64,000 nucleotides of DNA. It comes from Eledone cirrhosa (lineage: Eukaryota). Shown here piece after piece: positions 32,532 to 34,185 of the stretch; positions within the stretch are counted from its first letter, which is position 1, and each line of letters opens with the position of its first letter. The DNA lies in assembly GCA_964016885.1 (NCBI GenBank), contig OZ024766.1:6200001-6264000 (forward strand), read 5' to 3'. The notes under the pieces are model-generated. The model was not told where the DNA came from, made no database searches, and was given only the letters and a program-made list of their open reading frames with translations. Position numbers and translations under genes: made by a program.

Positions 32532-32736
32532 ATGGCTCATTCCATGAACAACCAACTGCTACTGACGGTGCTGTCCTTCTCAACAGGGGCCGTAGCTTTG
32601 GTGGCACTTGCACTAGCAGTGGCCACAGACTCCTGGTTGTATACACAGGAAGCTGTTAACTATCTCGTCGAGAATGTCACCATAGTATATCTTACAAGGA
32701 TACACTCGGGACTTTGGAGGTACTGTACGATAAATG
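32532..32736 (+). CDS. CACNG: First coding exon of a voltage-dependent calcium channel gamma subunit / stargazin-TARP family gene (PMP22/claudin superfamily, CACNG5/7-like)
   Basis: Translates MAHSMNNQLLLTVLSFSTGAVALVALALAVATDSWLYTQE...ENVT...[14 protein letters not shown]1, the A-V-x-T-D-x-W-L-Y motif, an NVT sequon and the HSGLWRxC motif typical of CACNG. It ends in phase 1 at a consensus donor G|GTGAGT (GT at 32737), where vertebrate CACNG first coding exons also end. Orthologue number not assignable. Confidence 0.9.
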
Positions 32737-32782
32737 GTGAGTCTATATATCTGTATATATGTGTATATATGTGTGTATATGT

Positions 32783-34185
32783 TTGGTTGTATACACAAGA
32801 AGCTGTCAACTTATCTTGTCGAGAATATCACCATAGTATATCTTACAAGGATACACTCGGGACTTTGGAGGTACTGTACGATAAATGGTGAGTCTATATA
32901 TCTGTATATATGTGTATATATGTGTGTATGTGTGTATATGTTTAGTTGTATACACAAGAAGCTGTCAACTTTTCTTGTCGAGAACGTCACCATAGTATAT
33001 TTTACGAGGATACATTCGGGACTTTGGAGGTACTGTACGATAAATGGTGAGTCTATATATCTGTATATATGTGTATATATGTGTGTATATGTTTGGTTGT
33101 ATACACAAGAAGCTGTCAACTTATCTTGTAGAAAATGTCACCATAGTATATTTTACAAGGATATATTCGGGACTTTGGAGGTACTGTACGATAAATGGTG
33201 AGTCTATATATGTGTATATATGTGTATATATGTGTGTATATGTTTAGTTGTATACACAAGAAGCTGTCAACTTATCTTGTCGAGAATGTCACCATAGTAT
33301 ATTTTACAAGGATATATTCGGGACTTTGGAGGTACTGTAGCATAAATGGTGAGTCTATATATGTGTATATATGTGTATATAATAATGAAAATAATAATGA
33401 AATTATTGTGTACAGTGCTCAGGTGCACTACAACTCATCAAAGGTGCATGTATAGTACATAGAATAATGTACAAATATTAGGAAAATGAACAGTGTATGA
33501 GTCATGATATAATAACAATAACAATAATGAAATATTGTGTGTATATGTGTGTATATGTGTATATGTTTAGTTGTATACACAAGAAGCTGTCAACTTATCT
33601 TATAGAGAATATCACCATAGTATATCTTACAAGGATACATTCGGGACTTTGGAGGTACTGTACGATAAATGGTGAGTCTATATATGTGTATAGATGTGTG
33701 CATATGTGTATATATGTGTGTATGTGTGTATATGTTTAGTTGTATACACAAGAAGCTGTCAACTTATCTTGTCGAGAATATCACCATAGTATATCTTACG
33801 AGGATATATTCGGGACTTTGGAGGTACTGTACGATAAATGGTGACTCTATATATGTGTATATATGTGTATATATCTGTATATATTTGTGTATATGTGTAT
33901 ATATGTAAATATGTTTAGTTGTATACACAAGAAGCTGTCAACTTATCTTATAGAGAATGTCACCATAGTATATCTTACAAGGATATATTCGGGACATTGG
34001 AGGTACTGTACGATAAATGGTGACTCTATATATGTGTATATATGTGTATATATGTGTATATGTGTGTATATGTTTAGTTGTATACACAAGAAGCTGTCAA
34101 CTTATCTTGTAGAGAATATCACCATAGTATATCTTACAAGGATACATTCGGGACTTTGGAGGTACTGTAGCATAAATGGTGAGTC
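32783..34185 (+). repeat. 8 tandem copies of the 3' half of the CACNG exon plus splice donor, spaced by (TA/TG)n
   Basis: Unit ttgtatacacaagaagctgtcaacttatcttgtcgagaat...gggactttggaggtactgtacgataaatg|gtgagt. Donor GT at about 32888, 33047, 33198, 33349, 33672, 33841, 34020 and 34179. Confidence 0.95.
33381..33539 (-). mobile_element. CR1 3'-end insertion inside the exon-derived array
   Basis: Near-identical reverse complement of 8058-8210 (CR1 3' UTR and ATT tail). Confidence 0.9.

Follow-up and report, generated by a model that had tools for sequence, protein, structure and literature searches.

The 64,000-nucleotide window analyzed here (the whole stretch of Eledone cirrhosa DNA presented above, to which all positions refer) contains the first two coding exons of an octopod TARP/CACNG5-7-like gene. 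The end of the first of these exons, together with its splice donor, forms the first unit of a nine-unit tandem array. The exons and the intron that separates them are located as follows:

32532–32736, + strand: first coding exon, 68 codons plus 1 nt, with the authentic donor (last exonic G at 32736 followed by GTGAGT)
32737–61051, + strand: intron 1, 28.3 kb, 72.5% tandem repeat
61052–61153, + strand: second coding exon (102 nt), preceded by a strong acceptor

The first coding exon encodes TM1 and β1–β3 of the first extracellular loop. The translated exon piece scored above the cut-off of the Pfam Claudin_2 profile (PF13903; 32.6 bits, cut-off 29.1), carries the W-L-Y...GLW..C pattern of the first loop, and has TARP gamma-7 and gamma-5 as its best PDB matches, in agreement with the TARP/CACNG assignment made in the preliminary description of this DNA. 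A profile search yielded 18 matches, and one full-length match used as a query retrieved 33 relatives, mostly named mollusc gamma-5/7-like proteins. A homology search for the 49-aa exon piece within longer proteins recovered it in 0 of 361 candidates. Among the 11 named homologues run by tblastn, the closest was the Octopus bimaculoides protein P0029, whose residues 1–68 are 82% identical to the translation of 32532–32735; three other octopod proteins showed 66–69% identity. Because the P0029 match begins at residue 1, 32532–32736 can be taken as the first coding exon, starting with ATG at 32532. Residue 68 of P0029 leads directly into the sequence of exon 61052–61153 without an additional segment, and this collinearity with a database gene model from another species, whose orthology is judged from similarity, supports the previously proposed 32736–61052 junction across 28.3 kb. 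The acceptor of exon 61052 has a branch-like motif at -23, a pyrimidine fraction of 0.81, and no other AG within 45 nt.

The end of exon 1 runs straight into exon 2 in the putative orthologue P0029 and likewise in the paralogues P0026 and P0028. Relative to P0026 and P0028, five residues are added at this point in P0027, an isoform of an O. bimaculoides paralogue, so small variation at the exon 1/2 junction exists; the protein sequences suggest a microexon or an alternative acceptor in that paralogue. A scan of intron 1 for a P0027-like 15-nt microexon gave one pattern match, at 58693, with no resemblance. When the 11 named homologues were searched for more exons in 32737–61051, the two exons and the eight array copies were the only credible tblastn matches. 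A ~1.9-kb CAC/AAC repeat (30647–32531) lies immediately upstream of the start codon, and the nearest YAG is at 32339. Within the coding sequence of TM1, at 32560–32586, a branch-like motif, a pyrimidine run, and a CAG look like a better acceptor than that of the 51-nt cassette discussed below. This CAG was considered as an exon acceptor and rejected, the frame being open from ATG 32532 and the P0029 match running from residue 1. The motifs illustrate how such signals originate by chance; should there be a non-coding exon upstream, they could be used as an alternative acceptor. At 32721–32723, W-R-Y-C replaces the usual W-R-V-C in the gene and in all copies, and the Y is also found in two Haliotis homologues.

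The available text of PMC9282427 describes a protostome TARP-B subfamily that is expanded in octopuses, with four members there. The host gene appears to fit this group, as judged by its closest named relative, the O. bimaculoides gamma-5-like protein P0029, which ends in TTIVL without TTPV and is nearer to gamma-7/5 than to gamma-2 (PDB search, E 1e-34 for gamma-7 vs 2e-24 for gamma-2); the window holds no C-terminus of its own gene. The AlphaFold model of P0029 (mean pLDDT 77.5) comprises four TM helices and an extracellular β-sheet, of which the window covers only TM1 and loop 1. Modulation of AMPA receptors has been shown for other protostome TARPs, according to the accessible part of PMC13520880.

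The array occupies about 32634–34240 on the + strand of this one assembly, and consists of the real exon tail with its donor followed by eight copies:

32634–32785, + strand: unit 1, start 32636; the last ~101–103 nt of the real exon, last exonic G at 32736, and 49 nt of TA/TG with which the intron begins; unit 2 starts 150 nt after unit 1
32786–32944, + strand: unit 2; 5' part of the copy type with the inserted T (TT at 32811–32812); pseudo-donor after G 32887, GTGAGT
32945–33095, + strand: unit 3; pseudo-donor after G 33046, GTGAGT
33096–33246, + strand: unit 4; pseudo-donor after G 33197, GTGAGT; additional in-frame TAG acceptor candidate defining a 66-nt segment from 33132
33247–33569, + strand: unit 5; pseudo-donor after G 33348, GTGAGT; 221-nt spacer with an insert
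33380–33539 (ends approximate), - strand: single antisense insert of ~160 nt in spacer 5, 94% identical to 8060–8230
33570–33738, + strand: unit 6; pseudo-donor after G 33671, GTGAGT; 66-nt candidate from 33606
33739–33917, + strand: unit 7; weakened pseudo-donor after G 33840, GTGACT
33918–34076, + strand: unit 8; weakened pseudo-donor after G 34019, GTGACT; GLW changed to GHW; 66-nt candidate from 33954
34077–34240, + strand: unit 9; pseudo-donor after G 34178, GTGAGT; 66-nt candidate from 34113; runs into the TA/TG microsatellite of intron 1

The exon portion measures 101 nt in unit 1 and 102 nt in units 2–9, with one additional T at the same place in all eight copies. GTGAGT is found in unit 1 and in six of the eight copies, and GTGACT in units 7 and 8. 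In a blastn search of the 64-kb window with the exon, the copies matched unit 1 over ~100 nt with 91–95% identity (E 1e-36 to 1e-42), which places the likeness of the nine units far beyond chance, and no other credible match was found in the window outside the array. These results bear out the preliminary description, which had reported eight further repeats of the exon tail and donor, GTGAGT in six of them and GTGACT in two, and a 1-nt insertion in all copies that it ascribed to amplification of one mutated founder. The spacers consist of TA/TG microsatellite and are 49–77 nt long, except for spacer 5 (221 nt), and their variation makes the unit period range from 150 to 179 nt, with a single case of 323 nt. 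Three substitutions relative to unit 1 are common to the copies, all of them silent in the exon frame, and an internal ACCATAG is present in all nine units, the real exon included.

A region as extremely repetitive as this one invites the suspicion that the array, or its copy number, was mis-assembled, but such an error is scarcely credible. All eight copies are exactly 102 nt long with no indel noise; the units differ from each other at 3–10 of 111 aligned positions, and 11 informative sites are shared by at least two units; one spacer carries a unique insert, and the window sequence is without any N. Together, these features argue against an assembly artefact.

The arrangement suggests how the array may have arisen. 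At the duplication junction, the TG/TA repeat of the intron is joined to a look-alike stretch of the exon (exon TGGTTGTATA, intron TGTGTGTATA). A 150-bp duplication would thus have joined the microsatellite that follows the donor to the similar exon stretch, and the resemblance of the two sequences suggests slipped-strand or microhomology repair as its possible mechanism. The first copy then acquired the additional T; since all copies share it (8/8), along with the three substitutions relative to unit 1, they descend from one founder. Growth to eight copies probably involved unequal exchange or conversion. Of the pairs of informative sites, 27 of 55 fail the four-gamete test, and this is the pattern expected from unequal exchange or conversion, although recurrent mutation is possible for single pairs. 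Unit 2 is a hybrid, copy-like in its 5' part and of the real-exon type in its 3' part, where it equals unit 1 exactly from the equivalent of 32677 to the donor (3' 60 nt); the 3' part of the real exon would therefore have been copied into unit 2 at least once. At a later time, one retroelement-like tail would have inserted in spacer 5.

Derivation of the copies from a paralogue or a diverged allele was also considered, given that all three fixed differences are silent. Under the proper null (constrained exon, neutral copy), the three unit-1-specific silent changes have p 0.05–0.08, and this origin is possible but not needed. Likewise, an acceleration of exon evolution by conversion from the array was rejected: in comparison with P0029, the repeated part has 9 differing residues out of 34 and exon 2 has 7 out of 34 (Fisher's test, p 0.78).

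The surrounding DNA is itself largely repetitive, with tandem repeats covering 73% of the window (Tandem Repeats Finder). The window contains 20 merged arrays with a period of at least 40 and at least 4 copies, of which 13 were kept at a 4-mer complexity of at least 0.5, namely the donor array and 12 others. Eight of these 12 match dispersed sequence elsewhere in the window, and two of the 12 (29115–30525 and 61280–64000) are built likewise from a unique segment and a TA run. Amplification of whatever adjoins a microsatellite is the norm in this window, and no special cause has to be invoked for an exon end being captured. The 61280–64000 array has a 72-bp unit (38 copies, 97% match) and begins 127 nt past the donor of exon 2; thus, both exons of the window have an array close downstream.

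Several other repeats were noted. At 7376–8223 lies the C-terminus of an ORF with a doubled 3' tail; we take the ORF (7376–7936) and its tail to be LINE-like, and a Pfam search of this ORF gave no match. A 164-bp piece of LINE-like ORF is repeated 11 times at 15138–16977 (98% match) and is 85.5% identical to 7653–7811; it belongs to the eight arrays with dispersed matches. The reverse match of the spacer-5 insert, 8060–8230, lies ~25 kb upstream of it and spans the join of two tandem copies of the LINE-like 3' tail; the insert was either templated locally or comes from a doubled tail that is a mobile family in its own right. In intron 1, two arrays of one 48-bp unit (55737–57395 and 57641–58555) are inverted relative to each other with ~98% identity, and could form a ~0.9-kb pre-mRNA duplex, a possible substrate for A-to-I editing. 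Long fold-back (palindromic) stretches were seen by eye in the unmasked sequence at 6043–6402, 6883–7421, and 51800–52590.

Minisatellites that reiterate a splice junction are already described as a kind in human genes (PMC1557585). As set out in the available sections of that source, the first monomer lies across the exon-intron boundary and the donor is reiterated in F7 (IVS7, 37 bp, 5–9 copies), 6-16/IFI6 (intron 2, 25 pseudo-sites), CBS (IVS13, 15–20 units), LMNB2 (100 bp, 10–15 copies), and PDGF (intron 4, 81 bp, 16–18 copies). The octopod array resembles them in its boundary-spanning first monomer, reiterated donor, and copy number, and its unit is about as long as that of LMNB2; it is a head-to-tail array of mosaic units placed on a real boundary. 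It differs in being found in an invertebrate, at a first coding exon and a 28-kb intron, the precedents being mammalian, at internal exons, and with shorter monomers; in carrying about 101 coding nt per unit vs 4 nt in F7; and in its variable unit length, its shared frameshift, and an internal AG that opens the possibility of in-frame cassettes. The same sections report that the authentic donor alone is used in F7, LMNB2, and PDGF, that the next one or two sites are used as well in 6-16 and CBS, and that, according to the discussion, an earlier study of duplicated sites had obtained the opposite result. Our search for literature on the TARP locus or on such an array in cephalopods found no report, within a coverage that leaves out most subscription journals.

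Over positions -3 to +8, six of the pseudo-donors are identical to the authentic donor, and the other two differ at +5. Energies calculated against the motif at the U1 5' end were -9.2 kcal/mol for donors of the authentic type and -5.1 kcal/mol for the GTGACT donors. Among the 2227 GTs of the intron, just 11 attain -9.2, and the array holds 7 of these. With six pseudo-donors equally strong, donor 1 is thus not protected by the strength of its sequence. Spliced to 61052, every one of donors 2–9 gives a premature stop, at codon 119 or 120, as the preliminary description had anticipated in predicting frameshifts or included stops. Donor 2 creates a TGA across the junction and a 118-aa product, the stop lying about 100 nt upstream of the next junction; with donors 3–9 the stop at 32889–32891 is included and the product is 119 aa. 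By the 50-nt rule established in mammals, the products of donors 2–9 would be candidates for NMD. Unit 2 begins exactly 150 nt after unit 1, and the exon frame stays open and stop-free through spacer 1 to the inserted base; it is therefore the additional T that puts donor 2 out of frame. Judged by the orthologue and by the human genes, splicing to 61052 would proceed from the authentic donor, which lies furthest upstream, and the copies would leave with the intron. Any leak would go mainly to donor 2 and give a stop-containing RNA that is probably degraded, and the copies would have no role in coding for protein.

The strong downstream donors could instead take a share of the splicing, so that stop-containing RNAs are routed to NMD and copy number tunes the level of the TARP. 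Six copies with donors as strong as the authentic one and a stop behind every downstream donor would provide for this. Precedents in the parts of the sources at hand are the use of two pseudo-sites in 6-16 and CBS (PMC1557585), the reduced activity with which the CBS VNTR is connected by the title of a study cited there, and the commonness of splicing-associated tandem repeats in humans (PMC10078293). However, downstream sites in the F7 minigene do not compete even when strengthened, as stated in the sections of PMC1557585 available, and the array bears no sign of selection: two of its donors have decayed at +5, and the invariance of the others is unremarkable with 15 variable sites among the copies in 111 columns. 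A donor-competition effect on expression is possible, and a tuning role of this kind is nonetheless unlikely. A related proposal is that the insertion was selected as a fail-safe, in that the first duplication was in frame and the additional T made the donor-2 product degradable, which permitted amplification. Before the insertion, use of donor 2 would have yielded a misfolded protein 50 aa longer (150 nt without a stop), and in addition to the insertion in 8/8 copies, the start of the unit shows a TAG in the former frame in 6/8. Against this, an in-frame period has a prior of one in three, a single founder explains the sharing by all copies without selection, and the proposal would require donor 2 to be used; we regard it as highly improbable.

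The remaining alternative concerns the coding potential of the copies themselves, for which the preliminary description had proposed an in-frame cassette defined by the internal ACCATAG:

32837–32887, + strand: candidate 51-nt cassette of unit 2, with a weak acceptor; predicted only

Its equivalents start at 32996, 33147, 33298, 33621, 33790, 33969, and 34128. The segment was found as described, in phase 1-1, stop-free, and in frame in 8/8 copies, with the variants L/F, H/Y, T/S, and L/H. A second in-frame candidate acceptor, overlooked in that description, defines a 66-nt segment in four of the eight copies (units 4, 6, 8, and 9). Splicing of donor k to the AG of unit k+1 would add one or more segments of 17 aa (51 nt) or 22 aa (66 nt), which would duplicate the GLW-C part (β2/β3) in the first loop and make the TARP more diverse, the whole being a nascent array of cassette exons. 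Both segments are in phase 1-1 and stop-free; a branch-like yUnAy, created by the additional T, lies at -24 from the 51-nt acceptor; a 100-nt intron from donor 1 to the AG of unit 2 is feasible; the 66-nt acceptor has a pyrimidine fraction of 0.69; and P0027, with its extra residues, shows an addition at this very junction.

The acceptors and the variants nonetheless speak against such cassettes. By a crude score with no species-trained model behind it, the pyrimidine fraction of the 51-nt acceptor at -20 to -5 is 0.44–0.50, whereas 671 intronic YAGs have a median of 0.50 and the true acceptor reaches 0.81; the polypyrimidine tract, already called weak in the preliminary description, is thus at the intron background. 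Three other AGs lie within 45 nt of it, vs none at the true acceptor, and the same branch-like motif is only 9 nt from the 66-nt acceptor. The 51-nt cassette exists only because its AG belongs to the coding sequence of the exon, and with three AGs past the insertion, one or more would be in frame by chance with a probability of 0.70. The variants in the cassette comprise four missense and two silent events, compared with a neutral expectation of 0.22–0.27 silent (p 0.39–0.51, with few events). In the whole copies, 5 of 12 events are silent (p 0.10–0.20). Silent changes account for 8 of the 15 variable positions in the exon (p 0.01–0.03 vs pure neutrality), which counts against a neutral reading, although this result is driven by the three unit-1-specific changes. 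One copy (unit 8) changes GLW to GHW at a position occupied by L or M in the named homologues (23 of 23). Each of the 23 has one GLW-C motif and none a second; they are the named ones among the 33 relatives whose sequence spans the motif region, with 7 unnamed and 3 partial sequences left out. In the P0029 model, the segment comprises strands 49–59 and 63–69 together with the conserved Cys65. Core elements of the sheet would thus be doubled by an insert, which may also add a spare cysteine to the sheet. Duplication of the GLW-C motif in frame is accordingly unsupported as a selected feature, given a background acceptor, neutral-looking variants, and its presence in 0/23 homologues, and a nascent cassette array is very unlikely.

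The boldest form of this idea would be a battery of cassettes caught at birth, in which introns of ~85–130 nt let neurons chain a variable number of slightly differing 17- or 22-aa segments into the first loop of a TARP expanded in octopuses; we give it only a slim chance. It is an equally long shot that the additional T both supplies the branch point and sends mis-spliced RNA to decay, with copy number tuning receptor kinetics between animals. The first extracellular loop region is thought to set AMPA-receptor gating, and if cassettes of this kind did exist, they would show that the turnover of a minisatellite can give a synaptic protein combinatorial exons. As in Dscam, where exons have been duplicated in tandem into a cassette array, the copies are tandem coding sequences each followed by a donor; unlike those of Dscam, they have no authentic acceptor of their own, their 5' half is frameshifted, and no coding constraint is seen in them. 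Intron gain by tandem genomic duplication, in which the duplicated segment is exonic and is removed exactly, as presented in the accessible parts of PMC4974935 and PMC2891723, likewise puts a donor and a latent AG in register for a short new intron. In contrast to that process, 51 nt separate the latent AG of the octopod array from the donor that follows it; a 17-aa insert would thus be left, and everything is already taken out by the real intron.

In our judgment, the array is therefore quite probably a minisatellite, neutral or nearly so, that lies across the boundary between exon 1 and intron 1 of the octopod TARP gene. This reading is favored by the orthologue and the paralogues without a cassette, the single GLW-C in 23/23 homologues, the 73% repeat content of the window, and the neutral-looking variants. 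The outcome that the preliminary description had named as its own refutation, a neutral minisatellite, is thus the most likely one; on analysis, the upstream donor is most likely dominant, perhaps with a minor leak to donor 2.

As a neutral minisatellite, the array is most likely an ordinary by-product of a genome in which almost any sequence gets tandemly amplified. In it, a coding exon exchanges sequence with an adjacent neutral array, a possible local source of mutation, although no acceleration was found. The array also constitutes a natural test of the mammalian rule that the most upstream donor wins, in a mollusc, at a first exon, in front of a 28-kb intron, and with six equal rival donors; because each unit is distinguishable by SNPs, reads can be assigned to the individual units.
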